A stretch of 32,074 bases of DNA from an uncultured archaeon (GCA_964456345.1 CAYVZO010000002.1:1-32074); one strand, 5' to 3'; positions 1,969-25,356 are shown, counted from the stretch's first letter. The notes: generated by a model not told the origin, from the sequence alone. Made by a program: numbers and translations.

Positions 1969-2553
1969 ATGCCAGACAAGTACAAAGGAATAAAGTTCAC
2001 GGTCAGCCTGATAGAAAGGAAGAGGCTGGATTATAAGGAAATAGACGAACTGATAAAATGGTGCAGGCAGTTCCATGAACTGGGACTCGCGCCTGCTTAT
2101 GAAGGAGGCAGCTCAGGCAACCTGAGTTTTCGTATTGGGAAAAACTTCGTCATAACAGCTGCTAAAACTGCTCTCGGAAGTATAACAAGAAACGATTTTG
2201 TTGAGGTTGTTTTTTGTGATATGGAAAAGAAGCAGATAGCTGCTATCGGGTTAAAAGAGCCGTCTTCCGAGACAATGCTTCACTCAGCTATATACAAGGC
2301 AAGGCCAGACGTGAATGCAGTATTCCACGGCCACGATGAGAACGTGATGAAATGCCTGGAAGAACTGGACATTGTCGCGACAGAAGAGGAGAAGCCTTAC
2401 GGCACTGTCGAGCTCGTGGAAGAGGTGCTGAAAGTCCTCGGAAACAACTATTACGTTGTCATGAAAAACCACGGGTTCATCGCTCTGGGAAAAACAATGG
2501 AACAGGCCGGAGAAAACGCAATAGAAATGTATAAAAAATCTGTGAAAGCCTGA
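1969..2553 (+). CDS. Class II aldolase/adducin-family protein (MtnB dehydratase or ketose-1-phosphate aldolase)
   Basis: 194-aa ORF starting 4 nt after the isomerase stop. Zn-ligand pattern HGH (VFHGHDENV) plus a later NHG (VMKNHGFIALG), as in FucA/MtnB-type class II aldolases. Confidence 0.85.
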   Translation: MPDKYKGIKFTVSLIERKRLDYKEIDELIKWCRQFHELGLAPAYEGGSSGNLSFRIGKNFVITAAKTALGSITRNDFVEVVFCDMEKKQIAAIGLKEPSSETMLHSAIYKARPDVNAVFHGHDENVMKCLEELDIVATEEEKPYGTVELVEEVLKVLGNNYYVVMKNHGFIALGKTMEQAGENAIEMYKKSVKA

Positions 2554-2694: not shown

Positions 2695-5337
2695 ATGGGT
2701 CATAAATACGTCTACTCCTTTGGAGAGGGCTCTTCCGGAATGAAAGAACTGCTGGGGAACAAAGGGGCACAGCTTTCAGAAATGACCAAGATGGGCCTTC
2801 CCGTGCCTCCAGGATTCACCATAACGACTGAAGCGTGCATATATTGGTACAAGAACGGCAAATACCCCGAAGGTCTTGAACAGCAAATAGAAGAGAAGCT
2901 TAGCGAACTGGAACAGAAGACAGGAAAGAAATTCGGGAGAGACCTGCTGGTTTCTGTACGTTCCGGCGCAGCAGTGAGCATGCCTGGCATGATGAACACA
3001 GTGCTAAATCTCGGAATCAACGACGAAGTAGTGAAATACCTTGCAGAAGAAAACGAGAAGTTTGCTTACGACTGTTACCGCAGGTTTATACAAATGTTCT
3101 CCGATGTTGTCCTTGGCATGAAAATTGACAAGTTCGAGAAAATCCTCGAGAGCTACAAGAAAGGCAGGAACGACACGGACCTTACTGGAGAGGAACTGAA
3201 AAAAATAACTGCCGAATACAAAGAACTTGTGAAGAAGGAAGGAAAAGAAGTGCCTTCTGACCCGCATGAACAGCTCAGGATGGCTGTCCAGGCTGTGTTT
3301 GATTCCTGGAACAGCAAAAGGGCCATTACCTACAGGAAAATAAATAATCTTTCTGATGACATGGGTACAGGCGTGAACGTACAGACGATGGTTTACGGCA
3401 ACAGGAACGATAACTCAGGCACAGGCGTGGGCTTTACGCGAAATCCCAGCAACGGAGAGAAGGAATATTACGGCGAATACCTCCTGAACGCCCAGGGCGA
3501 GGATATAGTTGCAGGGATAAGGACGCCAAGGCATATCGATGATATGAAGAACGAGATGCCGGAAATATACAAAGAGCTTACCAAGATATACAGAATCCTT
3601 GAGCAACATTACAAGGATATCCAGGACTTCGAGTTCACGATAGAAGACGGCAAACTATATATGCTCCAGACCAGGACGGGAAAAAGGACAATACAGGCTG
3701 CTGTCAAGATTGCAGTTGACATGGTCAAGGAAGGCCTTATAGACAAGAAGGAAGCAGTAATACGCATAGACCCGTACCAGATTGACAAGCTCCTTCACAG
3801 GAAGGTTGACCCTTCTGCTGAAAAGAACGTTATAGCAAAGGGTATCAACGCCTCGCCCGGCGCAGTCTCGGGCATGGTCGTATTCGAGCCTGACGCTGCT
3901 GTCGAATTCGCAACCAAAGGAAATGACGTCATACTCGTAAGGCCTGAAACGACGCCGGATGATATACACGGAATGAACGCTGCAAAAGGCATTTTAACTT
4001 CAACAGGAGGCATGACATCCCACGCAGCAATAGTTGCAAGGGGGATGGGAAAGCCGTGCATAGCAGGATGCGGTGACATAAAGATTTCCCTGCAGGAAAA
4101 GAAATTTTCCGCTGGTGTTAACATAATCAAGGAAGGCGACATGATAACAATAGATGGGAGCTCCGGCGAGGTCATAATCGGCGATGTCAAGACAGTCGAG
4201 CCCGAGATAAACAAGGATTTCAAAGAGATTCTGTCCTGGGCTGACGGAATGAGAGTGTTAGGAGTAATGACCAACGCCGACACGCCAGGCGATGCGGCGA
4301 AGGCACGCGAATTCGGAGCTGAAGGCATCGGCTTGTGCAGAACAGAGCACATGTTCTTTGCGGAAGATAGGCTGCCTATAATGCAGAAGATGATAATGAG
4401 CGACAGCGAAGAAGAAAGGAGGGCAGAACTTGGCAAGCTGCTGCCGATGCAAAGGAATGATTTTATAGAAATATTCAAGGCAATGGACGGACTTCCTGTC
4501 ACCATAAGGCTGATTGACCCGCCTCTGCACGAATTCCTGCCAAACATCGAAAGGCTCGTTGCAGAGGTCACCGAATTGAAGATAAGGCTGAACAAGCACA
4601 ACGAAAAAGAGCTTATACAGAAAGAGGCGTTGCTTGACAGGGCAAAGGCCCTGGACGAGTTCAATCCCATGCTCGGGCTCCGCGGGTGCCGCCTCGGCAT
4701 CATGTACCCCGAGATAATAGACATGCAGGTCAGAGCGATAATAGAAGCTGCTGTAGAAGCCGGAAAACATGGTGTGAAGGCTGTACCAGAGATAATGGTG
4801 CCGCTCGTTGGCCATAAAAAAGAGATAGAGATAATCAGGAAAAGGATAGAAAGTTTGATAAGGGAGATTCTCAGAGACGAGGAACTGGATTATAAAATCG
4901 GTACGATGATAGAGCTGCCCAGGGCCTGCGTAAGGGCAAGCGAGATAGCAGATCACGCCGATTTCTTTTCTTTCGGCACGAACGACCTCACCCAGACCAC
5001 GCTCGGCTACAGCAGGGATGATGCAGAGGGCAAGTTCTTCAAGGAGTACTTGGAACAGGGCATACTCGAGGATGACCCGTTTATAAGGCTTGACCAGCGC
5101 GGCGTTGGAGCGCTGATGAAGATAGCTGTCGATTCTGTAAAGGGCAAGAAGATAAAGCTTGGTATATGCGGCGAGCATGGCGGCGACCCGTCTTCAATAG
5201 AATTCTGCCACATTTTGGGCTTAGATTACGTATCCTGTTCGCCTTTCCGCGTGCCTGTTGCCCGTCTGTCAGCAGCCCAGGCAGCGGTCAAGTCCGGTTC
5301 GCGTTTGAAGAGAATCAAATCAATACTGCACCGCTGA
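2695..5337 (+). CDS. ppdK: Pyruvate, phosphate dikinase
   Basis: Roughly 880 aa. N-terminal KYVYSFGEG...GNKGAQLSEMTKMGLPVPPGFTITTEAC, phosphohistidine region GGMTSHAAIVARGMGKPC, and PEP-utilising C-terminal domain (GLCRTEHMF, FFSFGTNDLTQ, ICGEHGGDP). I prefer the ATG at 2695 over the TTG at 2683 used by the ORF track. Confidence 0.95.
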   Translation: MGHKYVYSFGEGSSGMKELLGNKGAQLSEMTKMGLPVPPGFTITTEACIYWYKNGKYPEGLEQQIEEKLSELEQKTGKKFGRDLLVSVRSGAAVSMPGMMNTVLNLGINDEVVKYLAEENEKFAYDCYRRFIQMFSDVVLGMKIDKFEKILESYKKGRNDTDLTGEELKKITAEYKELVKKEGKEVPSDPHEQLRMAVQAVFDSWNSKRAITYRKINNLSDDMGTGVNVQTMVYGNRNDNSGTGVGFTRNPSNGEKEYYGEYLLNAQGEDIVAGIRTPRHIDDMKNEMPEIYKELTKIYRILEQHYKDIQDFEFTIEDGKLYMLQTRTGKRTIQAAVKIAVDMVKEGLIDKKEAVIRIDPYQIDKLLHRKVDPSAEKNVIAKGINASPGAVSGMVVFEPDAAVEFATKGNDVILVRPETTPDDIHGMNAAKGILTSTGGMTSHAAIVARGMGKPCIAGCGDIKISLQEKKFSAGVNIIKEGDMITIDGSSGEVIIGDVKTVEPEINKDFKEILSWADGMRVLGVMTNADTPGDAAKAREFGAEGIGLCRTEHMFFAEDRLPIMQKMIMSDSEEERRAELGKLLPMQRNDFIEIFKAMDGLPVTIRLIDPPLHEFLPNIERLVAEVTELKIRLNKHNEKELIQKEALLDRAKALDEFNPMLGLRGCRLGIMYPEIIDMQVRAIIEAAVEAGKHGVKAVPEIMVPLVGHKKEIEIIRKRIESLIREILRDEELDYKIGTMIELPRACVRASEIADHADFFSFGTNDLTQTTLGYSRDDAEGKFFKEYLEQGILEDDPFIRLDQRGVGALMKIAVDSVKGKKIKLGICGEHGGDPSSIEFCHILGLDYVSCSPFRVPVARLSAAQAAVKSGSRLKRIKSILHR

Positions 5338-9390: not shown

Positions 9391-9771
9391 CTAAAACGGC
9401 ATTACGCTGAGCATAATGCCTATCAAATAAGGTGATACGTAGAGGCTCATGACGAAATAGACTGCGAAAGCTACGAGCAATACCTTAAGCTTCGTCTTTG
9501 TATCCGCTTCCAGCAGCAGCTCTCCGAAAGCTATCCATATTATGAGGGGCAGAAGCAGCTCTGAATAGATTCCTGTCATGCCTATGTAGGGCGCTATTAT
9601 GGGTGCGAAGAAGAACGAAAGCAAAGCCAGGACAAAGGTCTTTTTTCCCTCTATATTATGCGCGATGAAGTTATCAGACAGTATGACAGCGATAAAGGCT
9701 ATGAGCGTGTTTATGAAATAAACTACAAGGACTGAGAACGTAAAAGGCAGGTAGATTCCAAATAACTCCAT
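9391..9771 (-). CDS. Small hydrophobic membrane protein (about 4 TM), unknown function
   Basis: 126-aa ORF, co-directional and 8 nt upstream of the MFS-like gene. No recognisable motif. Confidence 0.5.
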   Translation of the reverse strand: MELFGIYLPFTFSVLVVYFINTLIAFIAVILSDNFIAHNIEGKKTFVLALLSFFFAPIIAPYIGMTGIYSELLLPLIIWIAFGELLLEADTKTKLKVLLVAFAVYFVMSLYVSPYLIGIMLSVMPF

Positions 9772-13512: not shown

Positions 13513-14685
13513 TCAGCGTTTCCTCAGGAGAACGAAAGCAACGACAACTATCACAACAATAAACATCCCGATAACGGTGCTGCTGGTGACTGATAACCCC
13601 GTAATCGTTATAGTTTCCCTCTCGCCGAAGTCGTACGCAAAGACTTTGCTAAAATAACGTGCTGCATCGCCGCTAACGACAATAGCTGCTTCTCTGTTGT
13701 GCTCTGGCGAGTTCTGGTTCCAGTTTATGGACGAAATCAACGCGATTTTATCGTCTATCACCATGGCTTTTGCGTGGACTTTCTCCACACCTATATCTTC
13801 AAGATCAGCCAACCTTGCCTCCATGCTGAGGTTCTCTTCCCTTGCTATATTGTTCACGTACTCAGCTGTGTAATAGTTGCTGGTTGGGTCGTCTTTATCG
13901 AGATTGTACCAGTAGCTGTCCAACAATATTTTCACGTCCAATCCTTCACGGGCCTTGTTTATGACAGCCTCCAGTAACGGGTTGGTCGTGTAGCTGCCTT
14001 TGCTGCCCCAGTACCTATAGATATAGAAATGCTCTATGCAGATGCTATCTTCGGCAGACAGAATAAGCTTCAGAATATCGTCCGTTGCATTAGGAGCAAA
14101 AAACGCGTATGCGTCCCCATAATAGCTGGATGGCATGAAAACAGGTGCGAAGCTACTCTTTTCGTAATCGATGGAGTAATTAGCAAGGTCGCATGCAAAC
14201 GGCACAGCGTTCTTTAAGTCGCTGTCAAAGACAACTGAGAACTGCTTCGCTATCTCTTCGTCATCGACAACAGCCCCAAAGCCGCGGTTATTGCTTGTGC
14301 CAAAATTCTCCGTGGTGACCAACACTTCTTCGCCTTTTATCACGTATTTCGCATGCATGAAGCGGTGCGGACCGTCGTAGAGCATGACAGTGACGTTGTT
14401 CTTCTGAAGCTCGCATAAAATCCCTTTGTCAGGGATACCACCTACAGGGCCTGAATCAAGCAGAAGGGTTATGTTAGCTCCCTTGCCCTTTTGCTCTATC
14501 AATTCGTCCATTATCCAAGGATTAGAGAACGTGTATGAAGCTATTTTCAGCTCGTCTGCATCTCTCAAAAAACTGCTAAGAACGGAAAAGCTGCTGTCGG
14601 GGTTTGTGAAAGTCGTTATTGATGCGGCATTCACGACACCGGGGCAAAGTACGATCAAAAGCAGGTATTTAACCCACATGTTCAT
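13513..14685 (-). CDS. Secreted, C-terminally anchored phospholipase D-superfamily protein (two HKD-type motifs)
   Basis: 390 aa. N-terminal signal-like helix (MNMWVKYLLLIVLCPGVVNA) and C-terminal TM (VIGMFIVVIVVVAFVLL) followed by RKR. Motifs are HAKYVIKGEEVLVTTENF (the Asp position is Gly) and the canonical HAKAMVIDDKIALISSINWN. Confidence 0.8.
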   Translation of the reverse strand: MNMWVKYLLLIVLCPGVVNAASITTFTNPDSSFSVLSSFLRDADELKIASYTFSNPWIMDELIEQKGKGANITLLLDSGPVGGIPDKGILCELQKNNVTVMLYDGPHRFMHAKYVIKGEEVLVTTENFGTSNNRGFGAVVDDEEIAKQFSVVFDSDLKNAVPFACDLANYSIDYEKSSFAPVFMPSSYYGDAYAFFAPNATDDILKLILSAEDSICIEHFYIYRYWGSKGSYTTNPLLEAVINKAREGLDVKILLDSYWYNLDKDDPTSNYYTAEYVNNIAREENLSMEARLADLEDIGVEKVHAKAMVIDDKIALISSINWNQNSPEHNREAAIVVSGDAARYFSKVFAYDFGERETITITGLSVTSSTVIGMFIVVIVVVAFVLLRKR

Positions 14686-14740
14686 TAATATCGAAAGAGC
14701 CTTTAAAAAAGCGTGAAAAAATAACCTACATTGCAGGATG

Positions 14741-14789
14741 GAAATCTTTAAATATGAATAGTTACTTTAAGGTAGTGAAATAGGTGTGG
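14741..14789 (+). promoter_or_regulatory. Promoter/5'UTR module A: GAAATCTTTAAATAT (BRE/TATA) ... GTAGTGAAATAGGTGTGG (SD GGTG)
   Basis: The 15-nt box is identical to 15545-15559, and the downstream 18-nt box nearly matches 15586-15604. GGTG lies 5 nt upstream of the ATG at 14792. Confidence 0.6.
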
Positions 14790-14791
14790 AT

Positions 14792-14860
14792 ATGGGCTAT
14801 TCTGAAAAGGCTGCTGAGAGCAATATGCCAAAAATCTTTTCAAGAAGGTGTGATTCATGA
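14792..14860 (+). CDS. 22-aa leader sORF (MGYSEKAAESNMPKIFSRRCDS), stop overlaps the next start (ATGA)
   Basis: Preceded by an SD (GGTG). Its TGA at 14858-14860 overlaps the ATG at 14857 of the 214-aa ORF. Below the ORF-track length cutoff. Translation not proven. Confidence 0.35.
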   Translation: MGYSEKAAESNMPKIFSRRCDS

Positions 14861-15501
14861 GTTTTTTGTCAAGCCTATTCGGTCCTCCGAACGTGCCTGT
14901 TAAGACTCGCTCTAAAAAACCAGGACAGCGAAAAAAGCCTAGAGTGGTCCGCAGAGTCGTACACGGTCAGGAGTATCCTTTCTACAGGACCAAAAACCTT
15001 GGAAAGGCGTTGGAGCGCTCAGGCATACATCATATCCTGACAGGAATAAGGAACAGTGAATGGGAGAGGTTTAAGGACAACGGCCACAAGATGAGATGGC
15101 ATCCTCACATCATAAACAGCTACAAAATCAATTACGATAATACGCCTGTTCTTTACGTGCCTGGCCAGCGCGGCTATAAACAGCCGAAAGTGCCTGCAGG
15201 CAGAAACAGCTTCCAGCCGTTGGGGAACCTTGTCCATTACGAGTTGAGGCTTCCCAGAGGCGAATTCAGCGTAGCCGGCTTCTTTCCACGGGAGTACCTT
15301 TATCTCGACATCGCACTGGTTCCTGGAAACGAAGAAACAAGGAAAAGGTCAGAAAGGTACGTGTCGTTCAACGTCATTGGCTACAGAGAAAACAACGTGA
15401 CAGGCAACATTGACGCTGCTTATTCTAAGCTTACGCGCGGAATCGAGAAGTCGACGTTAAATAAATACGTAAAAGAGGCGCTCAACTCCATAAGCGCCTA
15501 G
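14857..15501 (+). CDS. Orphan basic protein, 214 aa, N-terminal LFG motif
   Basis: SD GGTG lies 7 nt upstream. N-terminus is MSFLSSLFGPPNVPVKTRSKKPGQRKKPRVVRR. I recognise no family. Confidence 0.6.
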   Translation: MSFLSSLFGPPNVPVKTRSKKPGQRKKPRVVRRVVHGQEYPFYRTKNLGKALERSGIHHILTGIRNSEWERFKDNGHKMRWHPHIINSYKINYDNTPVLYVPGQRGYKQPKVPAGRNSFQPLGNLVHYELRLPRGEFSVAGFFPREYLYLDIALVPGNEETRKRSERYVSFNVIGYRENNVTGNIDAAYSKLTRGIEKSTLNKYVKEALNSISA

Positions 15502-15544
15502 AAAAGGGGTTTAAATACGCCTAAATTAACTACTCTATAGTAAC

Positions 15545-15604
15545 GAAATCTTTAAATATAGTCGGCAGTGCATTACTACCTAGTTGTAGTGAATATAGGT
15601 GTGG
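15545..15604 (+). promoter_or_regulatory. Promoter/5'UTR module B: GAAATCTTTAAATAT ... GTAGTGAATATAGGTGTGG
   Basis: Duplicate of module A with a spacer 10 nt longer. GGTG lies 8 nt upstream of the ATG at 15610. Confidence 0.6.
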
Positions 15605-15609
15605 GTTGT

Positions 15610-15741
15610 ATGAAAAAGAAATATCCAAAAAATGGAATCGGTAAGAGAATCCATTATTGCGGCAGCGGATTCAAAGGCGAGGTTATAAAGGCTCGCGGCA
15701 TAACTTTCTGCACGTTTTGCGGCCACGAGTTCAGGGAGTGA
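15610..15741 (+). CDS. 43-aa zinc-ribbon-like sORF (MKKKYPKNGIGKRIHYCGSGFKGEVIKARGITFCTFCGHEFRE)
   Basis: SD-led. HxC ... CxxC spacing is compatible with a small Zn knuckle pair. The stop directly abuts the next ORF. Below the ORF-track cutoff. Confidence 0.45.
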   Translation: MKKKYPKNGIGKRIHYCGSGFKGEVIKARGITFCTFCGHEFRE

Positions 15742-15747
15742 TTGAAA

Positions 15748-16287
15748 ATGCTCTGTGTAAGAGAAGGTCCGATTTACGAGAGAATGAAAGACCTCAATCT
15801 GTCAGACCTGATAATAGAACTCTTTGGCAATATTGATTCTAGAGGAAGCTCGGCAAAGCCGAACTTCCGCACTTCAACAGACTACAGAGGAGGCTCAACA
15901 GGACATGGTATAGAGTATACAATGCCTTATGACTTTGATATAGGAAGCTACGACCCTCGGACTGGAGAGATACAGGTAAGCAAGTATTTTCCTAATGGCA
16001 GGCCTATTTCTGAAAGGGCTCAGAGATACATATTCGCGCATGAAGACGGCCATAGACGGGGTTATGATGAGATTGACACAGCGCTGTTTGCAGAAAGTGC
16101 AGCTGACCCTGATTTATGGCTCATGGTAATGGGTTACAGGGCAGCTTTTGCCAAGCAAGGCAGGAACTGCAGGGACGCTGAAGTATACAGGGGCATTACA
16201 GAAAGGTACGGAAGAAGCGAAATAGCCCCTCTGCTCAGGGCGATAGACAAGATTGGCGATGAAATAATAGCAGAGGGTAAGAGGTGA
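15748..16287 (+). CDS. Orphan protein with HExxH motif (FAHEDGH), putative small metallopeptidase; N-terminal LFG motif
   Basis: 179 aa from the ATG at 15748 (the ORF track uses the TTG at 15742). Contains ELFGNIDSRG near the N-terminus and RAQRYIFAHEDGHRRGYDEID. GGAG lies upstream. Confidence 0.6.
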   Translation: MLCVREGPIYERMKDLNLSDLIIELFGNIDSRGSSAKPNFRTSTDYRGGSTGHGIEYTMPYDFDIGSYDPRTGEIQVSKYFPNGRPISERAQRYIFAHEDGHRRGYDEIDTALFAESAADPDLWLMVMGYRAAFAKQGRNCRDAEVYRGITERYGRSEIAPLLRAIDKIGDEIIAEGKR

Positions 16288-16292
16288 TTTGG

Positions 16293-17492
16293 ATGGTAGG
16301 CAACACAAAGGAATTGATTTATAATCTTTTCGGGGATAGTCAAAGAATACCTACAAGCGGATTGTTCGGCGGACCGCTTGGTTGCTTTGCCAACGAGATG
16401 GTAGCAACCGGCTCTGGTGCCTACCCAATATCAGAGGGCAGGCCGATGCCGACTTTCGTATACAGGAAGGGCGAGAAAGGCAGCAAGCCTGACACACCTG
16501 GTGCAAAGCCGGGCGATTATTCCGGAGGAAAAGAACCCGGAATGCCGTACATATCAGCAAGGCCTGTTTCAGGTCCTGCAAAAGAGCCGAATACAAAGAA
16601 ATCTAACGGTAATGCTAAGAAAGGGGTGAAAAAAGTGCCAGTAGATTTGGGAAAACCATTCAAAGAAATTGGGAAGAAAATCGGAGACTTTGGAAAACCG
16701 AAGAAAAAGGCTATGCCAGGTCAACCAGAACGGAAATATACCATGCAGAAAGTTAAAGAAGAAATAGACCTGTTAAGAGAGCAGACAGGGAAACTGTCAA
16801 CATCAGAGAAAGAGATTCTATATAGTGGTACCCATTTAAATGAGGAAATAAGGAATAAAACCTATTCATTGGGAAGAGAGATAAAATATCTAAGCGGGGT
16901 TCTCAACGACGACAAAGAAAGGTTTGGCAGAACAGCTAAAGTAGGAAACAAAAAATTTGAATTAACCAAAAAAAATACAAGGAATTCAGCATCTGGTAAA
17001 TATGTTGCTGAAGCGCAAGACGGGGCTGCTGAATTCATACCAACAGCTGAAGAGGAGTATAGAAGCATCCTAAGCAATATGACGACAACAAAAGAAACAA
17101 CCAGTAGAATATTGCAAGAACTTACAGACATGTGGGATGCGGTGACGTTCCAAATGGAACGCTATGCAAAAGCTCAGACAGATATCAGAGATGCTTGGGG
17201 AACCTACGATGAACAGCTAACAAGTCTCTCAGGAATGAAGACACTGGAAGAGATGGGAAAAGAAAGTCCACTCTACAAGAAATTGGAAGAAATTGGAAAA
17301 GACGTATCAGAAGGGAAAGAGCTAGAGAAAGCATATAAAGACCTGTACGAATCTATGGAAACAACTGAAGCATTTCTTGGAGAATATGCATTCAAAGCAC
17401 GCGGATTAATAGACAGAATAGAAAGAATGGAACCAGCTGTTGACAGAAAGTTGAATGACATAAATAGCTATAACATAGAGCAGGCTTCCTAA
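16293..17492 (+). CDS. Orphan protein: LFG N-terminus, Lys/Pro/Gly-rich disordered linker, long coiled-coil C-terminal half
   Basis: About 399 aa from the ATG at 16293, which has GAGGTGA 3 nt upstream. The GTG at 16284 overlaps the previous stop and is an alternative start. ELIYNLFGDSQRIPTSGLFGGPLG is followed by KPGDYSGGKEPG...KKGVKKVP...GKPKKK and then heptad-like E/K/L-rich sequence. Confidence 0.65.
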   Translation: MVGNTKELIYNLFGDSQRIPTSGLFGGPLGCFANEMVATGSGAYPISEGRPMPTFVYRKGEKGSKPDTPGAKPGDYSGGKEPGMPYISARPVSGPAKEPNTKKSNGNAKKGVKKVPVDLGKPFKEIGKKIGDFGKPKKKAMPGQPERKYTMQKVKEEIDLLREQTGKLSTSEKEILYSGTHLNEEIRNKTYSLGREIKYLSGVLNDDKERFGRTAKVGNKKFELTKKNTRNSASGKYVAEAQDGAAEFIPTAEEEYRSILSNMTTTKETTSRILQELTDMWDAVTFQMERYAKAQTDIRDAWGTYDEQLTSLSGMKTLEEMGKESPLYKKLEEIGKDVSEGKELEKAYKDLYESMETTEAFLGEYAFKARGLIDRIERMEPAVDRKLNDINSYNIEQAS

Positions 17493-17494
17493 AA

Positions 17495-17510
17495 TTGTTT
17501 TTTCTTTTTT
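17495..17510 (+). terminator. T-rich terminator (TTGTTTTTTCTTTTTT) after the orphan operon
   Basis: Begins 3 nt after the TAA at 17490-17492. Oligo-T runs of 6 each. Confidence 0.5.
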
Positions 17511-17543
17511 CCTCTTTAATTCTAAGCCTTTTTCGAACAAATG

Positions 17544-17632
17544 GACGCACAGAGGTGCGTCAGTTCGTTAACGGCTTAAGCGAAAATGTAGCTTACACTA
17601 TTAATGGTATAGACTATCCGCGAAGCGGATAG
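17544..17632 (+). other. Cluster of four perfect palindromes/hairpins (candidate sRNA or operator array)
   Basis: GACGCAC-AGAG-GTGCGTC (17544-17561), CGTTAACG (17566-17573), GCTTAAGC (17574-17581), and CTATCCGC-GAA-GCGGATAG (17614-17632) followed by TCTTTTT. Confidence 0.4.
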
Positions 17633-17667
17633 GGTATCTTTTTATTTATCCGATATGTATTATATTC

Positions 17668-18315
17668 ATGGCTTTGGAAGACATAGGTATATTGTTGTTC
17701 GTGGATATCCTGAAGATGACTGAATATCCGGGCTCGCCTTTCACAGGCAATATCATAAATGACCTGGTAATGTTCCTTCTCGTGCCTACCATATTCATCA
17801 TAGTGGTCATCTACACGCTTGTGGGGAGATTGACTCCAAACGGCAAGATAAAATTATTGCTCAGTGTGGGAATATTCCTGTTCATAGTGTTCGGAGGGTA
17901 TTACCCGATGTTTGCCTACCTCGCAGGTCCGTACTTCCTGTTCCTGATAATATTCCTAGGCCTTATAATGTTCTTCTTCGGCCACTTCGGCCTTCGGAGA
18001 GGCGAAACTCAGCACATGCCAGGAAGGGCATTGATGGCTGCCACAGACAACTCGGCAAAAGCCTCTGGAGAAGCACTGCACCATCTGCCAAGCAGGCTTC
18101 AGGGCCTTGTTGTTGCGCCCAGCCTGAACATGAGAGACAGGGCAGAGCTGGAAAGGGCTGCCCGTGGGCTAGACCGAGAAATAGAAGACTTACAGAAAGC
18201 TTATGATAGAATGGTGGAAACCGGTGCTCACGGTACTGGAGACGTTGCATTAAGGCTTCAGGAAAAACGAAATCAGAGAAGAATGATAGAAGCAGCTCTT
18301 ACAGGTACTAAATAG
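17668..18315 (+). CDS. Membrane protein P1 (3-4 N-terminal TM helices plus cytoplasmic coiled-coil tail), distant paralogue of P2-P4
   Basis: 215 aa. FLLVPTIFIIVVIYTLV resembles the FLLPWLxTFAVxYGLL core of P3/P4. TTTTTATTTAT lies about 20-30 nt upstream of the ATG, suggesting a leaderless or short-leader mRNA. Confidence 0.65.
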   Translation: MALEDIGILLFVDILKMTEYPGSPFTGNIINDLVMFLLVPTIFIIVVIYTLVGRLTPNGKIKLLLSVGIFLFIVFGGYYPMFAYLAGPYFLFLIIFLGLIMFFFGHFGLRRGETQHMPGRALMAATDNSAKASGEALHHLPSRLQGLVVAPSLNMRDRAELERAARGLDREIEDLQKAYDRMVETGAHGTGDVALRLQEKRNQRRMIEAALTGTK

Positions 18316-18323
18316 TGGTTACA

Positions 18324-18782
18324 ATGCTCGAATTATCTTCTGAAATGGTTGCTTTGTTAACCTCATTTCTGTTCGTCTTTGCTATAATATATGCGCTGCT
18401 TATATACACGAACATATTCACGCAATCGAGGCGCTCGGCAGTGATTATATCCCTGGTTATAGCGTTCTTCTCTGTTGTCTACGGCCCCATGGTAAGCTTA
18501 CTGCAGAACATACTGCCTATAGCAAGCCTGTTGCTCGTATTCCTCTTTTTCATAGTGTTCATCAAGAAGCTTATAGAAGGAGGCGGGATAAAAGACTCAG
18601 CGCCCATAACAGTTTCGCTGGCAATACTTCTGGTTGTTCTCGCTTCTACGTGGGGTAGTCTTGGGCTCTATCTCCCTTATCCGCTAACGCCTGATACGGT
18701 TTTATGGATAATAGGGATATTCGTTATATTGCTGATATTTCTCGGCGTATACTACCATAATCCGAAGGGGGAACAAAAATAA
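18324..18782 (+). CDS. Membrane protein P2 (multi-pass), paralogue family
   Basis: 152 aa from the ATG at 18324 (the track uses the GTG at 18315, which overlaps the P1 stop). LLTSFLFVFAIIYALLIYTNIF...VIISLVIAFF aligns with P3/P4. Confidence 0.65.
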   Translation: MLELSSEMVALLTSFLFVFAIIYALLIYTNIFTQSRRSAVIISLVIAFFSVVYGPMVSLLQNILPIASLLLVFLFFIVFIKKLIEGGGIKDSAPITVSLAILLVVLASTWGSLGLYLPYPLTPDTVLWIIGIFVILLIFLGVYYHNPKGEQK

Positions 18783-18827
18783 TTAACTATAAAAGCATGG
18801 GATGATAAATATTGAAAGAGGATATGT

Positions 18828-19343
18828 ATGGCTGACATCGTAACAACGCTGATGACGCAGTTAAGCTCCATAGGGTTCTTTGAGTTCTTGCTGCCCTGGC
18901 TTTTCACGTTCGCAGTTGTATACGGCCTGCTGATGAAGGTCGGGGTCTTTGGAGATGTCAGCAAAAAGGTCTCTCCAGTAATCGCAATAGTAATAGCATT
19001 CTTCATAACACCTTATGCAGGCCCCTGGCTTGCAAGCTATTTCTCGACGCTGTCTACGGAAATAGCAATCGTGCTTGCAGGCATACTGACTTTGGTGCTT
19101 TTCGCAGGTATGATAGGCTTCAAAGCGGATGAGCTCAAGAGCAAGAAATGGGGCCTTCCCATAGTGGTCGTGATGGCTGCAATCGTGTTCTTCTTTGCCC
19201 TTGGCGGCGAGTTTACTGCAGTAACAATCGGTGAGAACACGATAATGACCGTGGTGTTCATCGCGTTCCTGATAATAGCTGTATGGTTCATAACAAGCAA
19301 CGGAAAGAAGGAAGAGAAGACACAAACAGGTGGAGCTTCATAA
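18828..19343 (+). CDS. Membrane protein P3 (about 5 TM), paralogue family
   Basis: 171 aa. MADIVTTLMTQLSSIGFFEFLLPWLFTFAVVYGLLMK. SD GAGGA lies upstream. Confidence 0.7.
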   Translation: MADIVTTLMTQLSSIGFFEFLLPWLFTFAVVYGLLMKVGVFGDVSKKVSPVIAIVIAFFITPYAGPWLASYFSTLSTEIAIVLAGILTLVLFAGMIGFKADELKSKKWGLPIVVVMAAIVFFFALGGEFTAVTIGENTIMTVVFIAFLIIAVWFITSNGKKEEKTQTGGAS

Positions 19344-19359
19344 TGAACGGGTAATTCTG

Positions 19360-19833
19360 ATGGCAAGTCCTTTTGACAGCCTGGTTCTGATGCTGAAAGA
19401 TATTGGATTTTTCGGATATTTCCTGCCCTGGCTCCTGACGTTTGCTGTCATCTACGGACTGCTTGTAAAGTCCAAAGTTCTGGGAGAGGACCAGAAGATA
19501 ATCGGGGTTGTTTCCCTTGCGATTTCCTTCTTCGTGATAGGATTCGGCAGCATCGTCCTGGGCGAGTTCTTCGCATCATTGTTCGGGATGGGAATTGTCG
19601 TGTTGTCAGTCATCCTGGTAATGGTTCTTTTCGTGGCAATGGCAGGCGGCGACGTGAGCAAGCTTGCAGAGAACAAGCAGGTAATAGCCCTGCTCGTAGG
19701 CGTTGGCATAGTAGTCATAATAGCCCTTATGAGCAGTTTCGGCTTGGTTGTCAGCGAGGAATGGCTCACCCTTCTTGCAGTGCTGGTGATGCTTGGAATA
19801 GCTTTTGCATTTATAACGAGCAATAACAAATAG
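19360..19833 (+). CDS. Membrane protein P4 (about 5 TM), close paralogue of P3
   Basis: 157 aa from the ATG at 19360. MASPFDSLVLMLKDIGFFGYFLPWLLTFAVIYGLLVK aligns residue-for-residue with the P3 N-terminus. The track's GTG start at 19330 is unlikely. Confidence 0.7.
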   Translation: MASPFDSLVLMLKDIGFFGYFLPWLLTFAVIYGLLVKSKVLGEDQKIIGVVSLAISFFVIGFGSIVLGEFFASLFGMGIVVLSVILVMVLFVAMAGGDVSKLAENKQVIALLVGVGIVVIIALMSSFGLVVSEEWLTLLAVLVMLGIAFAFITSNNK

Positions 19834-19847
19834 GAAGCATGTCTTTA

Positions 19848-20489
19848 TCAGGCTTGCCTGTTCTTCATCTCGTGTATCATCGACGAGAGCGATTCTATGT
19901 TCCTTGTTAATGAAGGCAGGAACTGCTTGAACGCTTTCTCTAGGCCTCCGACACGGGCTTCCAAATCTTCCATCTGATTGATGACGTCGTTGACCCTGCT
20001 ATCCTCTACAGGAGTTTTGATTTCTTCTGCAGGTTTTGCGTTCTTGACTTCAGATTTCAGGGTGTTGAAATCCTCTTCCAGCTTATCCATCTGCTCCTTT
20101 ATTTTCTGCCATTTTTCCTCAACAACGCCTTCAACAAGCTCTTCCACTATAATTTCCGGGGAGATGTCCTTTGCATCAGCTTCATTCATTTCCGGCATCT
20201 CTGTTTCGGAGAAAACGTCCTGTGTAGGCGTCTCTTCCTGGAACGTCTGCGTGAAGCTGCTTTCCAGGCTGCCTCTTTGCGGCTCTGCTACAATAGGCTC
20301 TTTCTTCTGGGTATCCTGGCTAACGCCCTGCTTGACCGACCTCAGCATGGCAGCCTCTATCTCATCGTAAGCATATCCCTTGGATTTCAGCTCCCTGATT
20401 ATGTCCCTGTCGCTGAGGCCGTCTCTCTGCATTGCCTGGATCTCATCCAGAGGTATTGCCTTCTTTGTCTTCTTTTTCCTGAAAAACAT
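19848..20489 (-). CDS. Coiled-coil protein with N-terminal UBA-like helical hairpin
   Basis: 213 aa. IPLDEIQAMQRDGLSDRDIIRELKSKGYAYDEIEAAM, then an acidic linker, then a heptad-rich C-terminus. No family recognised. Confidence 0.6.
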   Translation of the reverse strand: MFFRKKKTKKAIPLDEIQAMQRDGLSDRDIIRELKSKGYAYDEIEAAMLRSVKQGVSQDTQKKEPIVAEPQRGSLESSFTQTFQEETPTQDVFSETEMPEMNEADAKDISPEIIVEELVEGVVEEKWQKIKEQMDKLEEDFNTLKSEVKNAKPAEEIKTPVEDSRVNDVINQMEDLEARVGGLEKAFKQFLPSLTRNIESLSSMIHEMKNRQA

Positions 20490-20550: not shown

Positions 20551-20928
20551 TTAACCTTTTTTCGAAAGTATCTCTTCCAGCTCTTCCTTTGTCACGAATT
20601 CCTGCCTTATGGGGCTGAGCAGGTCGAACATCTTTTCTATCTCCTTCAGGTCCTGTTTTTTCGCGAATTTGTTTATCTGGTTGTTTATCTTTTCCAGGTT
20701 GTTCTTGAGCTTTGATATGTCGTTCGTGGCTTCGTTGACGATAACATCCAGGTCAGAGAACTTCTCGCTGATTTTGTCTGTCCTTGAAAGGTTTGCAGCC
20801 TCAAGCGAGCTCGTCTTTTCCTCGAGAATGGATATCCTTTGCTCCAAGTCGCGGAGTCTCCTGCTCTCCTCGTTCGTCCTCCTGACCAATTCCTGGAGAA
20901 TCATCTGAAACTTGGAATCCTCTGGCAT
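20551..20928 (-). CDS. Small all-coiled-coil protein
   Basis: 125 aa, E/K/L/N-rich heptads throughout (RLRDLEQRISILEEKTSSLEAAN...). Transcribed divergently from the ATPase gene across a 107-nt A/T-rich spacer. Confidence 0.6.
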   Translation of the reverse strand: MPEDSKFQMILQELVRRTNEESRRLRDLEQRISILEEKTSSLEAANLSRTDKISEKFSDLDVIVNEATNDISKLKNNLEKINNQINKFAKKQDLKEIEKMFDLLSPIRQEFVTKEELEEILSKKG

Positions 20929-21035: not shown

Positions 21036-23261
21036 ATGGTCTGCGAATATGAGTATGACGAAGAGAAGCAGTGCATAAGGATAAACTGCCTGGGCTGCAT
21101 ATACGGATGTTCTATAGAAGACAGCGATGTATGCATGGCAACCACGATTGACAAGCTGATAGAGTTAAAGCGCCTGGTCCGTGTAGTTTTGGCAGAGAAC
21201 AGGGAGCATGAATACGACTTCGGGGACATAAAGCTTCTTCTGGAAATAGCAAACTCGATTGAAAGGATATCAAGGGAGGGAATAGTCGCGCTGAGGAATA
21301 TAGTGATATCCGAGTGCGAGGAAGAAGCGCCGGAACGCTACGCATTCCTGAGGAAACTGCTTAACGATCTCAGGTACGATCCTATAGAGGCTTACAAGAA
21401 CCTGTTGCGGGAGATACGCCACTCACGGACGCGGAGCGAAAAAGAGGACGAGATACACAGGAAGTGCAATGCTCATTATATAGAAAACACGCTTCTTCCG
21501 ATAAAGAGTATGCTCGACAGATGCAGGTTGATACAGCTTTCTAAAGAGCGGCTGACAGAGCACAAGGACCGCTCTCTTTACAGGAAGATATTCCACCCCA
21601 GCATAAGGCCAAACTTCATGTATACCAGGTATGTTTCGCTTCCGCCGTCGAACGCAGAGCTCATAGAGAAATATGAGTTAGGAGGCACGGATGTGGAGAT
21701 ATACCAGGTGCCCAACAACGTGAGAAAGCTGTACTACCTGATACCGCCGGAATTCAAGCTCAAGGAAAATGAATACACTCTTTTAGATACTGCACGCCAG
21801 TATCTGGGCCGGCACGAGCCGGGAGAAACGGAACTGGAGCATCCTGAGCGTGTAAGGGAGAACATATTCCGTATAGGCCTGGACATGCTGAGGGATATCG
21901 CAAGGGAGCAGAAGATAGACGTAACGGAAGAAAAGCTGGAGCACCTTGCAAACATCCTGGTAAGGTATACGATAGGTCTCGGGGTACTCGAATTGTTCCT
22001 GGAAGACGAGAACATACAGGACGTGGAGATAAACTCTCCTGTTGGCCAGCTTCCTGTATATGTTTTCCATAATAACCACCTTGAATGTGAAACGAATATC
22101 GTGCCAAGCAGGGAAGACGCGGAGTCATGGGCAACACGATTCCGTTTATCAAGCGGCCGCCCTTTAGATGAAGCGAATCCTGTGATGGATACAGAGCTTA
22201 TCGTGCCTGGCGGTCGCGCAAGGGTAGCAGCGATCACTAGGTCACTCTCGCCAGACGGCCTCGGCTTTGCGTTCCGTCGCCACAGGTTCAGGCCCTGGAC
22301 ATTCCCCCTGTTCATAAAAAACAGGATGATGGATTCTCTTTCTGCGGCAGTGTTATGGTTCACCATAGACGGTGCAAGAACGATGCTTATAGGAGGAACA
22401 AGAAGCTCAGGCAAGACAGCCTTCCTAGGTTCCTGCATGGTGCAGATAATGCCCAAGCTGCGAGTAATAACTGTCGAAGATACGCTGGAGCTGCCTGTCG
22501 AGCAATTGCGGGAAATTGGTTATAATATAGAGCGCCTGAAGTCGCGTTCCGTAATAACCCGCGTGGAGACGGAGCTTCCTGCTGATGAGGCGCTGCGCAC
22601 CGCGCTGCGTCTGGGCGATTCCTGCCTGATAATAGGCGAGGTACGCAGCAGGGAAGCGCTGGCTTTGTATGAGGCAATGCGCATTGGCGCGCTCGCCAAC
22701 GTAGTTGCAGGCACTATTCACGGCGAATCTGCATACGGAATCTTCGACCGTGTCGTTAACGACCTTACAGTACCTACAACAAGCTTCAAAGCCACGGACC
22801 TGATAGTCATATGCAATATGTTAAGGTCTCCGGACGGGCTGAACTCTTTCCGCCGCGTCGTCGAGATGACTGAGGTCCGTAAGCACTGGAAAAGCGACCC
22901 AATGGATGAGAATGGCTTCGTGAATCTGTTTGAATATTCAGCCCGCGAGGATTCGCTCAAGCCAAGCAAAACTCTTCTGATGGGTGAATCAGAAATCTTA
23001 AACAACATAGCAGAGCGCGTCCGCGAATGGAAAGGCCGCTGGGACGCTGTGTGGGGGAACATAGAACTCAGGGCGAACGTGTTCGACACGCTTGTAAAAT
23101 ATGCAACTTCAAAGAACAAGCCAGAGCTTCTGGAAGCTCCTTTCGTAATGGAGTCGAATTCTAAATTCCACTTAATAAGCAGTGCGGTTAAGGAAGAGCT
23201 GGGCGCTCTAGACAGCAAGGTAATATACGGCAAGTGGCACGAGTGGCTCAGAAACTTCTAG
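21036..23261 (+). CDS. Type IV filament/secretion ATPase (PilB/FlaI/VirB11 superfamily) with extended Cys-rich N-terminus
   Basis: 741 aa. Walker A GGTRSSGKTA, Asp box ITVEDTLEL, Walker B CLIIGEVRSREA, His box GTIHGES, and an upstream LELFLEDENIQDVEINSP motif typical of FlaI/GspE N-domain ends. The N-terminus is MVCEYEYDEEKQCIRINCLGCIYGCSIEDSDVC. Confidence 0.9.
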   Translation: MVCEYEYDEEKQCIRINCLGCIYGCSIEDSDVCMATTIDKLIELKRLVRVVLAENREHEYDFGDIKLLLEIANSIERISREGIVALRNIVISECEEEAPERYAFLRKLLNDLRYDPIEAYKNLLREIRHSRTRSEKEDEIHRKCNAHYIENTLLPIKSMLDRCRLIQLSKERLTEHKDRSLYRKIFHPSIRPNFMYTRYVSLPPSNAELIEKYELGGTDVEIYQVPNNVRKLYYLIPPEFKLKENEYTLLDTARQYLGRHEPGETELEHPERVRENIFRIGLDMLRDIAREQKIDVTEEKLEHLANILVRYTIGLGVLELFLEDENIQDVEINSPVGQLPVYVFHNNHLECETNIVPSREDAESWATRFRLSSGRPLDEANPVMDTELIVPGGRARVAAITRSLSPDGLGFAFRRHRFRPWTFPLFIKNRMMDSLSAAVLWFTIDGARTMLIGGTRSSGKTAFLGSCMVQIMPKLRVITVEDTLELPVEQLREIGYNIERLKSRSVITRVETELPADEALRTALRLGDSCLIIGEVRSREALALYEAMRIGALANVVAGTIHGESAYGIFDRVVNDLTVPTTSFKATDLIVICNMLRSPDGLNSFRRVVEMTEVRKHWKSDPMDENGFVNLFEYSAREDSLKPSKTLLMGESEILNNIAERVREWKGRWDAVWGNIELRANVFDTLVKYATSKNKPELLEAPFVMESNSKFHLISSAVKEELGALDSKVIYGKWHEWLRNF

Positions 23262-23310: not shown

Positions 23311-25356
23311 ATGCCTCTGGAAAGAAGGAAGAAAGCGCTGGAGATACCGAGCTCCCGCGAGAGGTTGGTCAGGGAGAATCTCAGGGAGCTCAAGAAGCTT
23401 GAATCGCGCGAGTACAAAATATACAAGGAAGAAGAAAAGCTGGCAACGCTGCCGCGTACTCTCTACGAGAAGGCGTGCAGGATCTCGTACAGAATAATAA
23501 AAGTCACGCCTGACAAGAAGACAGGCAAGATGCTGAAGGACGCGATAGAATTCTCACATCTCAGGGTTACGCCTAGCCAGGTTGCTTCTTTCACCATAGT
23601 ATTCGCGATGCTTGTCTGCTTCCCGACACTTATACTGACGGCAACAAGGATTTTCCTTGCCTCGCCTGACCCTGTTACAGGAGATATAGTGCCCGGCTTC
23701 GGCCTGGATGCCGGCTACAGCATGCTCATATTCGTTCTTGCGATCCCGTTCACTTACTACATATACGTCTATCCTGTGCACACGAAGAAGAAGTACGAGA
23801 TGGACGCAGGCTCGGAAATCGTAACCATGATAATGTACATGGCAATGTACATGAGGAATACACCCAACCTAGAGGGCGCACTTAGGTTCGCTTCAGAGAA
23901 CATTTCAGGCCCGCTTGGTTTCGAGCTCAGGAAACTCCTCTGGGATGTCGAAATCGGTAACTATCTTACGGTAAACGAGGCCCTTCTTGCTTACACGAAG
24001 AAATGGTCGCGAAACAGGGAATTCATCGAGGCGGTTGAGATAATAATAACCTCGCTCAATCAGAGCGGTGAAAGAAGGGTTACGATGCTTAACGAAGCAA
24101 TAAACATCATACTCAGGGGCAACATGGAGAATGCGAAGCACTTCAACCAGAGCCTCAGAACGCCTGTTACTGTCGTGCACGCCATGGGCATAGTGCTCCC
24201 TGTACTCGGCCTTGTGCTGTTTCCCATAGTAGCGTTCTTCCTCAACGTAGACATAATGGCGCTCTTCATAGGATATGACATATTGCTTCCTGTGTTCCTT
24301 TTCTTCATAATAAAGAACATACTGGAGAAAAGGCCCGCCACCTTTTCCAAGATAGACATATCTGACAATCCCAACATACCCAAGGAAGGAAGATTCAGAT
24401 TCAGGAAGAGGGACATAAAAGCATGGCCGATTGGAATCCTCTCAAGCATTGCAGTGTTTTCAATCGCTTTTCTGATATACATGGCAGAGGGCCAGAACGG
24501 GGTACTCTCGCCTGTGCTCTTTGTATTCTCCGTTGCGATAGGGCTTTCAACCTACTTCATTCTGGTCTCTTCACCTTTCCTAAAGGTAAGGTCAACTACA
24601 AGGGACATTGAGAGCGAGTTTGCAGAAGCGCTGTTCCAGATGGGAGAGCAGATATCCAGCGGTGTGCCCATAGAACTCTCCATGGAACATTCAGTAAGGA
24701 GAATAGGAAACCTCAAGATAAAGGAATTCTTCCAGAAAGCGCTGAATAATATAAGCCAGCTCGGATTGACATTCGAGCAGGCGTTCTTTGACAAGAAATA
24801 CGGGGCAGTGAACCTCTATCCATCAAGGCTTATAAAGTCTGTTATGCGTGCTGTCTCGGAGTCCTCGCGCAGGGGAGTGAAAACAGCCTCTATGGCCATG
24901 CTTACCATATCCAGATACCTGAAAGGGATTCACCGCACGCAGGAAGATGTCAAGGACGAGCTCAGCGAAACGCTGAGCTCGCTGAGGTTCCAGGCGTTCT
25001 TTCTCTCACCGATGATATCAGGCGTCGTCGTCACGCTTGGTATAGTAATACTCACCATACTTGAAGGCCTGGGCGCATCAACTGCAGGGTTCTCTTTCAT
25101 GGAGCTGCCGCTTCTGCTGAATGAAATAAATGTCACCTCTTTCCAGTTCGTCTTCGTGGTTGCTGTATATCTGTTCGAGACCTGCTTGATACTCTCTTTG
25201 TTTATAAACGGCATAGACAACGGAGAGGACCCGATAGAACTTAAAAGTTTGGCTGGATATTCACTGGTAATAGGATTTGTAGTCTTTATGACAACGCTGT
25301 TCATAACGTTCATGATATTCATGCCTTTGCTGACGCCGTTGTTGGGACTCGTATAA
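23311..25356 (+). CDS. Polytopic platform protein of the PilC/FlaJ/TadC (T2SS-F) type
   Basis: 681 aa, directly downstream of the ATPase. Alternating soluble helical segments and TM clusters (at least 8 helices by eye), the usual archaeal FlaJ/PilC architecture. Assignment rests on architecture and synteny rather than on a strict motif. Confidence 0.7.
   Translation: MPLERRKKALEIPSSRERLVRENLRELKKLESREYKIYKEEEKLATLPRTLYEKACRISYRIIKVTPDKKTGKMLKDAIEFSHLRVTPSQVASFTIVFAMLVCFPTLILTATRIFLASPDPVTGDIVPGFGLDAGYSMLIFVLAIPFTYYIYVYPVHTKKKYEMDAGSEIVTMIMYMAMYMRNTPNLEGALRFASENISGPLGFELRKLLWDVEIGNYLTVNEALLAYTKKWSRNREFIEAVEIIITSLNQSGERRVTMLNEAINIILRGNMENAKHFNQSLRTPVTVVHAMGIVLPVLGLVLFPIVAFFLNVDIMALFIGYDILLPVFLFFIIKNILEKRPATFSKIDISDNPNIPKEGRFRFRKRDIKAWPIGILSSIAVFSIAFLIYMAEGQNGVLSPVLFVFSVAIGLSTYFILVSSPFLKVRSTTRDIESEFAEALFQMGEQISSGVPIELSMEHSVRRIGNLKIKEFFQKALNNISQLGLTFEQAFFDKKYGAVNLYPSRLIKSVMRAVSESSRRGVKTASMAMLTISRYLKGIHRTQEDVKDELSETLSSLRFQAFFLSPMISGVVVTLGIVILTILEGLGASTAGFSFMELPLLLNEINVTSFQFVFVVAVYLFETCLILSLFINGIDNGEDPIELKSLAGYSLVIGFVVFMTTLFITFMIFMPLLTPLLGLV

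Follow-up and report, generated by a model that had tools for sequence, protein, structure and literature searches.

In a complete 32,074-bp contig of an uncultured archaeon (CAYVZO010000002.1 of GCA_964456345.1), which encodes GatD and GatE and which was analysed at its full length (hereafter the window), three neighbouring open reading frames (ORFs) on the plus strand specify otherwise dissimilar proteins with a common sequence pattern at or near the N-terminus, Φ-[L/I]-x-x-L-F-G, where Φ is a hydrophobic residue: FLSSLFG in ORF214, LIIELFG in ORF179 and LIYNLFG in ORF399. We tentatively propose that this motif is a membrane-tethering amphipathic helix, comparable to those of MinD and ESCRT-III, by which three soluble, fast-evolving and co-regulated proteins would be kept at the membrane, on its cytoplasmic face, close to a pilus-type module encoded downstream. 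A preliminary description of the same DNA had regarded the motif as a possible targeting or processing signal. Of this, a 'targeting' peptide in the broad sense is the most economical account, and the more specific secretion or sorting signal and propeptide site are unsupported.

The shared N-terminal motif

The first copy of the motif spans residues F3 to G9 of ORF214 (214 amino acids (aa); gene at 14857-15501), a basic protein that starts MSFLSSLFG (motif at 14863-14883; LFG at residues 7-9, 14875-14883). The second spans L21 to G27 of ORF179 (gene at 15748-16287), the N-terminus of which is MLCVREGPIYERMKDLNLSDLIIELFG (motif at 15808-15828; LFG at residues 25-27 counted from the ATG at 15748). 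The third spans L8 to G14 of ORF399 (gene at 16293-17492), the N-terminus of which is MVGNTKELIYNLFG (motif at 16314-16334; LFG at residues 12-14); this protein has a second G-L-F-G-G at 16359-16373, with LFG at residues 24-26, and continues with about 130 Gly/Pro/Lys-rich residues and a C-terminal coiled coil. The helix is terminal in ORF214 and ORF399, and lies 17 residues in from the start in ORF179. No DNA-level repeat was found beneath the motif. The presence of LFG near the N-terminus of all three proteins, as well as the second GLFGG of the third, bears out what had first been described; the pattern given for it, [L/I]-x3-LFG, does not describe ORF214, where F occupies -4 and L occupies -3.

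The starts at 14857, 15748 and 16293, along with that of an intervening small gene at 15610, are each preceded by a GGTG-type ribosome-binding site, unlike the majority of window genes; we fix the starts at these positions on the strength of these sites, in agreement with the database calls of 214, 179 and 399 aa. The ATG of ORF214 is preceded by GGTGTGATTC, that of ORF179 is preceded by GGAGTGAT and is also the start of the 179-aa database entry, and that of ORF399 is preceded by AGGTGAT. This start yields a protein of 399 aa rather than the 402 aa initially assigned; similarly, the initial placement of LFG at residues 13-15 of ORF179 relied on an internal Met that has no ribosome-binding site.

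LFG occurs 8 times in 9,919 residues of the window against 3.4 expected, and five of these eight occurrences fall within the first 27 residues of a protein, spread over four proteins. The fourth of these is a 126-aa membrane protein without known relatives (9391-9771, minus strand), which starts MELFGIYLPF and has its LFG within a transmembrane segment. Upon shuffling the N-termini of the three proteins, a common tripeptide arose in about 1e-3 of trials, and none of 400,000 shuffles also gave hydrophobic residues at -4 and -3, an extension of the motif that was defined after the data had been seen. Under a whole-window null, some consecutive trio with a common tripeptide in the first 30 residues appeared in 6-7% of trials. 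The motif is unusual, yet not overwhelming for a post-hoc pick.

On helical wheels the hydrophobic residues of all three motifs are gathered on one face; in ORF214, F3, L7, L4 and F8 share a face with Ser/Gly opposite. The polar faces differ between the copies, being Ser-rich, mixed and, in ORF179, acidic. The 40 residues following LFG are 65-72% disorder-promoting in all three proteins, with a net charge of +11 in ORF214 and -1 in ORF179; in ORF399 the only basic residue near the motif is K6, and a Lys-rich region lies much further on. In ORF214 the motif opens an N-terminal extension of 42 residues, in the order FLSSLFG, PPNVP and a polybasic stretch, which precedes a globular domain at residues 43-213.

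Proposed membrane tethering and competing explanations

As a tether, the motif would form a two-turn amphipathic helix ended by Gly and followed by a flexible linker, and its Leu/Ile/Phe face would dip into the cytoplasmic leaflet; in ORF214 the +11 polybasic stretch after the motif would assist membrane binding. Three otherwise soluble, lineage-specific proteins would in this way be held beside the products of the downstream genes, namely the polytopic membrane proteins and the pilus-type ATPase/platform. Shown directly are the sequence features, the lack of other signals, the likeness to the MinD tag, the similar N-termini on subunits of the adjacent machine and the missing extension in the one orthologue; we infer that the helix binds membranes and that the trio is functionally tied to the pilus-type machine. 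The trio has no other route to the membrane, as it contains no transmembrane segment and no Sec/Tat or class III signal.

In related loci, cytoplasmic subunits of this neighbouring machine begin with comparable short sequences, M-x(0-3)-Φ-F-(G)-Lys-rich. Scans based on its secretion ATPase, run over genome and metagenome contigs, gave 15 loci. The N-terminus of the cytoplasmic accessory protein cc213 is MFFRKKK in the window, and its orthologues start MLFHKKDKK, MIKLFGLGSKK, MKIFGGG and MKLPFLGGKK; a homologue of the coiled-coil accessory protein cc125 in one locus (L014) starts MVELFKKEEK; and the ATPase starts MLFDKKTGK, before its conserved Cys, in that same locus and MLFGRKKEK in another (L013). 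These ΦF(G)-Lys N-termini therefore sit on different subunits in different lineages; such a mobile tether is consistent with general membrane anchoring, in which any subunit might supply it. The ORF214/ORF179/ORF399 trio itself is in none of the 15 loci: most of the contigs end before the corresponding region, and two loci (L003 and L006) have a different upstream context in its place.

A word-seeded search of 5.8 billion proteins, run for all three, returned only self matches. It missed the one distant homologue of ORF214, P0004 (233 aa, E 1.5e-10), which was recovered only by an exhaustive HMMER search with ORF214 as query and aligns to residues 43-213 of that protein. The initial description of all three proteins as orphans holds for ORF179 and ORF399 in the word-seeded search, and for ORF214 with this one exception. 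P0004 is carried on three short contigs (L016-L018) in a neighbourhood like that of ORF214, with an opposite-strand PLD homologue (53% identity), the same promoter element, and the same ribosome-binding site and start codon (GGTGTGATTTATG); downstream of it is a second promoter copy, 80% identical, and the gene past this copy starts MTFVEEVVYNTARFLDNF. P0004 can have no N-terminal extension, since an in-frame TGA is found three bases before its start. Translationally coupled upstream of P0004 is a 171-aa Gly/Ala-rich, moderately hydrophobic protein (1021-1536 of L016). The window has at this point a 22-codon ORF (14792-14860, plus strand) with a negative codon score, the stop of which overlaps the ORF214 start (ATGA). 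Window 14668-14793 aligns to L016 917-1037 and window 14844-14859 to L016 1527-1542, two segments that flank the 171-aa gene; the 22-codon ORF is probably a remnant of this gene, with only its two ends kept.

We count it in favour of tethering that P0004 lacks the extension but is coupled to a hydrophobic protein, of which the window has only the 22-codon remnant: this is a possible tether exchange, in which ORF214 has its anchor built in and its relative instead has a small hydrophobic partner as a separate protein. A strain variant (L019) is 99.95% identical to the window, and its sole single-nucleotide polymorphism, one differing base in 1,907 nt, is L4M inside the ORF214 motif; the change is conservative, falls on the hydrophobic face, and is likewise counted for the tether, as is the promoter common to the two units that encode the trio.

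Several observations weigh against the tether. The hydrophobic moments are only moderate (0.30-0.43) and the helices, at 7-10 residues, are very short. The ORF179 motif, 17 residues from the start, with its acidic polar face and no basic flank after it, is a poor fit to an anionic membrane. The N-termini of the relatives share only ΦF(G) plus Lys, not the full 7-mer, and ORF179 and ORF399, with self matches only, provide no orthologues in which conservation could be seen. It had been set out beforehand that lack of conservation in orthologues would refute the initial proposal, and in P0004, the sole ORF214 orthologue, the 42-residue extension is missing in its entirety, motif and polybasic stretch alike; the extension is therefore not essential to the ORF214 family. 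AlphaFold2 models were unusable, with a predicted local distance difference test (pLDDT) score of 36 for ORF179 from a single sequence and of 34 for ORF214 from a three-sequence alignment; the low-confidence ORF179 model has a helix at residues 18-26. Finally, the likeness to MinD is a short-peptide resemblance and not homology; the trio lacks a ParA/MinD ATPase domain.

Coincidence, with three unrelated N-terminal helices that end in Leu-Phe-Gly and have no common function, is a serious if less probable alternative, with several points behind it. Leu, Phe and Gly are all abundant residues, and hydrophobic helices are often capped by Gly; the polar faces are unlike, and so are the motif positions (LFG from residues 7, 25 and 12); the only ORF214 orthologue has no such segment; the motif is a post-hoc pick from a genome scan of unknown size; and under the whole-window null some trio shares a tripeptide in 6-7% of trials. 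Chance accounts less readily for the shuffle results, for the gathering of five of eight window LFG at protein N-termini, for the disorder-type linker after every motif, and for the fact that other lineages have similar N-termini in the conserved module next door. It is most improbable that the ORFs are not genes at all and the motif a translation artefact of non-coding DNA. ORF179 and ORF399 are indeed without homologues detectable by the word-seeded search, and long spurious antisense ORFs are present in the window; however, when scored for codon usage as learned from the window's conserved genes, the annotated frame is the best of six for ORF214, ORF179, ORF399 and the intervening 43-aa protein (scores of +0.17 to +0.23 for the trio, with the other five frames negative), the purine skew agrees with plus-strand coding, each start has its GGTG-type site, and ORF214 has a syntenic homologue.

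The motif could instead be a docking peptide. In bacterial PilN a short N-terminal peptide binds PilM; here, in a like manner, the hydrophobic face would fit into a groove of a single common partner, candidates for which include the ATPase with its Cys-rich N-domain, cc125/cc213, and the 215-aa membrane protein with its cytoplasmic tail. Identical hydrophobic positions with varying polar faces suit such a groove better than lipid, above all for the acidic ORF179 helix, and the genes lie beside a conserved multi-subunit machine and share a promoter; yet no partner was identified, the ORF214 orthologue lacks the peptide, and the trio is absent from every related locus with enough upstream sequence. 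Docking is unlikely in our estimate. Quite improbable is a secretion or sorting signal or propeptide site for export via the ATPase/platform, with cleavage following LFG and the HExxH protein as the possible protease. Its attractions are that the motif is common to adjacent, otherwise dissimilar proteins, that an HExxH protein is encoded in the same unit as ORF399, that the window itself encodes no pilin-like substrate, and that relative-less, fast-evolving proteins near a surface machine of an episymbiont lineage would suit effectors. FlaI/TadC-type machines, however, assemble prepilins, and the class III signals of these need a basic n-region and a [KR][GA] cleavage site ahead of a hydrophobic helix some 20 residues long. 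A pattern and hydropathy scan of all ORFs found no N-terminus of this kind in the trio, with [KR][GA], or more broadly [KR][GAS], leading straight into the helix, and no pilin-like ORF in the window, and no window protein matches Peptidase_A24, the prepilin peptidase family. The maximal Kyte-Doolittle 19-residue windows of the three proteins reach 1.02, 0.76 and 0.78, so that no segment is hydrophobic enough to cross the membrane or act as a signal peptide; MSFLSSLFGPP lacks a basic n-region and contains no more than four hydrophobic residues, interrupted by Ser, and no RR precedes any motif, which leaves no Sec/Tat signal. A pilin or signal peptide was rejected on this basis. A double-glycine leader of the LSxxELxxIxGG type was also rejected: only ORF399 has GG (GLFGG), the upstream register is a misfit, and there is no C39 or ABC transporter match in the window.

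The ATPase/platform pair had been thought to lack known substrates, but ordinary pilin-like genes adjoin the homologous pair in L002, L004 and L008 (e.g. MKLKGISLPIEMMVIIAIAVLVLVV in L004), so it is not the case that this machine is without conventional substrates in general. With the motif internal in ORF179 and missing from the ORF214 orthologue, neither secretion or sorting via the pair nor propeptide cleavage after LFG, both proposed initially, finds backing; for the latter, peptidase homology of ORF179 was likewise not found. This protein has HEDGH at residues 98-102 (16039-16053) and, 14 residues downstream, AESAAD with E116 and D120, as read from the sequence, and could be a small zincin in which the two elements serve a putative gluzincin-like site. 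An HExxH by itself would be expected from composition at about 0.3 occurrences per window (an estimate), and no peptidase similarity was detected in Pfam, NCBIfam, PHROGs, PADLOC or PDB. There is, at most, a slender chance that Φ[L/I]xxLFG is a tag recruiting non-pilin clients (the basic protein, the small zincin and the disordered coiled-coil protein) to a DPANN-specific pilus-type ATPase/platform for assembly or export and host contact. If true, this would be a substrate class and a signal new to any type IV filament machine; a new secretion signal is not currently supported by this finding.

If the membrane tether is true, the gain is small but real: it offers a testable localisation for three DPANN proteins otherwise without annotation. 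It would also mean that in this archaeal pilus-type machine short ΦF(G)-Lys anchors have been acquired at subunit N-termini, and exchanged between subunits, again and again.

Transcription units and the adjacent pilus-type module

The region with the three genes is bounded on one side by a PLD-like gene (13513-14685, minus strand), its upstream flank, and on the other by a conserved pilus-type module. Between ORF214 and ORF179 lies the gene for a 43-aa Cys/His protein (15610-15741, plus strand), a Zn-ribbon with HYC...CTFCGH, which has GGTG ahead of its ATG and its own frame as top codon score; it is the first gene of a second unit that continues with ORF179 and ORF399. A BRE/TATA-like (B recognition element/TATA) promoter element, GAAATCTTTAAATAT, stands upstream of ORF214 (copy 1, 14741-14755, plus strand), where it is conserved upstream of the homologous locus L016, and again upstream of the Zn-ribbon/ORF179/ORF399 genes (copy 2, 15545-15559, plus strand), in a region 80% identical to L018 903-982. 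This exact 15-mer occurs twice in the window (14741 and 15545) against 0.05 expected, and is part of a 37-nt repeat. The promoter and 5' leader, with the BRE/TATA element and downstream GTAGTGAA..AGGTGTGG, are duplicated before both units. Since a near-identical promoter element heads each, the two units, ORF214 alone and Zn-ribbon/ORF179/ORF399, are probably co-regulated, and probably separate from the membrane-protein unit that follows. The duplicated promoter/leader is kept in a relative (L016 ~975-1040; L018 903-982) whose PLD protein is only 53% identical, which suggests a conserved shared regulator for these fast-evolving genes. A T-rich tract directly after the ORF399 stop (17493-17530, plus strand), read from the sequence, is probably the archaeal terminator of the second unit.

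The intergenic region between ORF399 and the first membrane-protein gene (17535-17640, plus strand) folds into three hairpins at -34.8 kcal/mol against a shuffle mean of -21.5 (z = -4.4; 0/200 shuffles fold as well). It has no Rfam match, and could be a small structured RNA or a terminator or regulatory element. An Rfam search gave no match, and the window contains no tRNA genes and no other sign of an integrated element. Most window genes have no Shine-Dalgarno-like sequence and are A/T-rich upstream, on which account they may be leaderless; GGTG-type sites are found on the trio, on cc213/cc125 and on the Zn-ribbon gene. The pyruvate phosphate dikinase gene contains two antisense ORFs that exceed 300 codons (3795-5178, minus strand), and ORF length alone is therefore no evidence of a gene in this contig.

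The trio has no match in Pfam, NCBIfam, PHROGs, PADLOC or PDB, and the PDB sequence searches gave chance matches only. A scan of viral contigs with ORF399 and the PHROGs search returned nothing, and a viral origin was rejected on this basis; the notion of a defence system was set aside as PADLOC was empty for the trio.

The pilus-type module begins with four paralogous polytopic membrane proteins of 215, 155, 171 and 167 aa (17668-19833, plus strand), with tblastn matches beside the ATPase in L002, L012 and L001. These are followed by cc213 (19848-20489, minus strand), in which the MFFRKKK start leads into a small helical domain that an acidic linker joins to a coiled coil, and by cc125 (20551-20928, minus strand), which is conserved in relatives. 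Next come a FlaI/TadA-type secretion ATPase with a Cys-rich N-terminal domain (21036-23261, plus strand; Pfam T2SSE 1.5e-13; NCBIfam FlaI 1.7e-38, below its cut-off) and a TadC/FlaJ-type platform protein (23311-25356, plus strand; Pfam T2SSF 3.1e-10). By tblastn the membrane-protein family, cc213 and cc125 adjoin the ATPase in several related loci. The closest relatives of the ATPase (47-66% identity) are on contigs of uncultured archaea, two of them labelled Candidatus Aenigmatarchaeota (DPANN).

The array of polytopic membrane proteins, with 3-4 paralogues, is a conserved neighbour of this ATPase/platform clade (17668-19833 of the window, 622-2811 of L002 and 12-1708 of L012), and has a conserved N-terminal segment approximating LxxLGFYDFILPWLFAFAVVYGLLVK; it matches no Pfam/NCBIfam family at the curated cut-off, with only weak sub-threshold matches. 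The cc213 family (window, L001, L002, L005 and L011) combines the ΦF(G)-Lys N-terminus with a small helical domain (GLSDxxIIxxLKxxGYSxxEIExAM), which a linker of Pro/Gln/Glu connects to a coiled coil containing EELVEGVVxEKW and GGLEKAFKQFLP; it has no curated family match, only coiled-coil noise. The cc213 orthologue of L012 has an in-frame stop (~2294-2296, minus strand; ALRK*GFDS) where the near-identical L001 copy has Glu, either a nonsense variant or a sequencing error. The ATPase N-domain (21036-21140 of the window, plus strand) has the Cys-rich signature MVCEYEYD...C..NCLGCIYGCS...C, common to most relatives. In L004 the ATPase ORF is about 80 residues longer and its tblastn match is split in two, which suggests an insertion.

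Comparison with known systems

Certain eukaryotic ESCRT-III proteins contain LFG in their N-termini. The resemblance to ESCRT-III extends to the ANCHR motif and to α0 of PspA/Vipp1: a very short N-terminal hydrophobic/aromatic segment, then basic residues, on a soluble protein often with a coiled coil. ANCHR is an N-terminal membrane-binding helix in eukaryotic and Asgard ESCRT-III (PMC8970359). Unlike those proteins, neither the trio nor cc213 has a Snf7 or PspA domain: there was no Pfam match to Snf7 or PspA_IM30 at E<=0.1, the sole PspA match being the cc213 coiled coil at 17 bits against a cut-off of 243 bits. Membership of ESCRT-III was rejected for want of a Snf7 domain.

The closest likeness in the peptide itself is to the membrane-targeting sequence of E. 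coli MinD, KGFLKRLFGG, which is an autonomous, transplantable membrane tag (PMC5471200). Its FLxxLFG core matches FLSSLFG of ORF214 at 5/7 positions; LIYNLFG and LIIELFG keep the hydrophobic register and the Gly end, and ORF399 has its second GLFGG. The MinD helix is C-terminal, whereas those of the trio are N-terminal or near-N-terminal, and the polar face of MinD bears Lys/Arg where those of the trio are Ser-rich, mixed or acidic. The trio belongs to neither the MinD nor the ESCRT-III family, and only an anchor-like manner of working is proposed.

Class III signal peptides share with the motif an N-terminal position and a location near an ATPase/platform pair, but their basic n-region, [KR][GA] site and long hydrophobic helix are all absent from the trio. 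The wider context of the module may be the clade-4 archaeal type IV pilus (T4P) loci, whose gene sets include an additional intracellular coiled-coil component (arCOG07564; Makarova et al., 2016; PMC4858521); the same T4P ATPase clade occurs in nanoarchaea without identifiable cognate pilins (PMC4858521). That study mentions neither the trio nor the paralogous membrane proteins; its loci resemble the module of cc125/cc213, ATPase and platform seen here.

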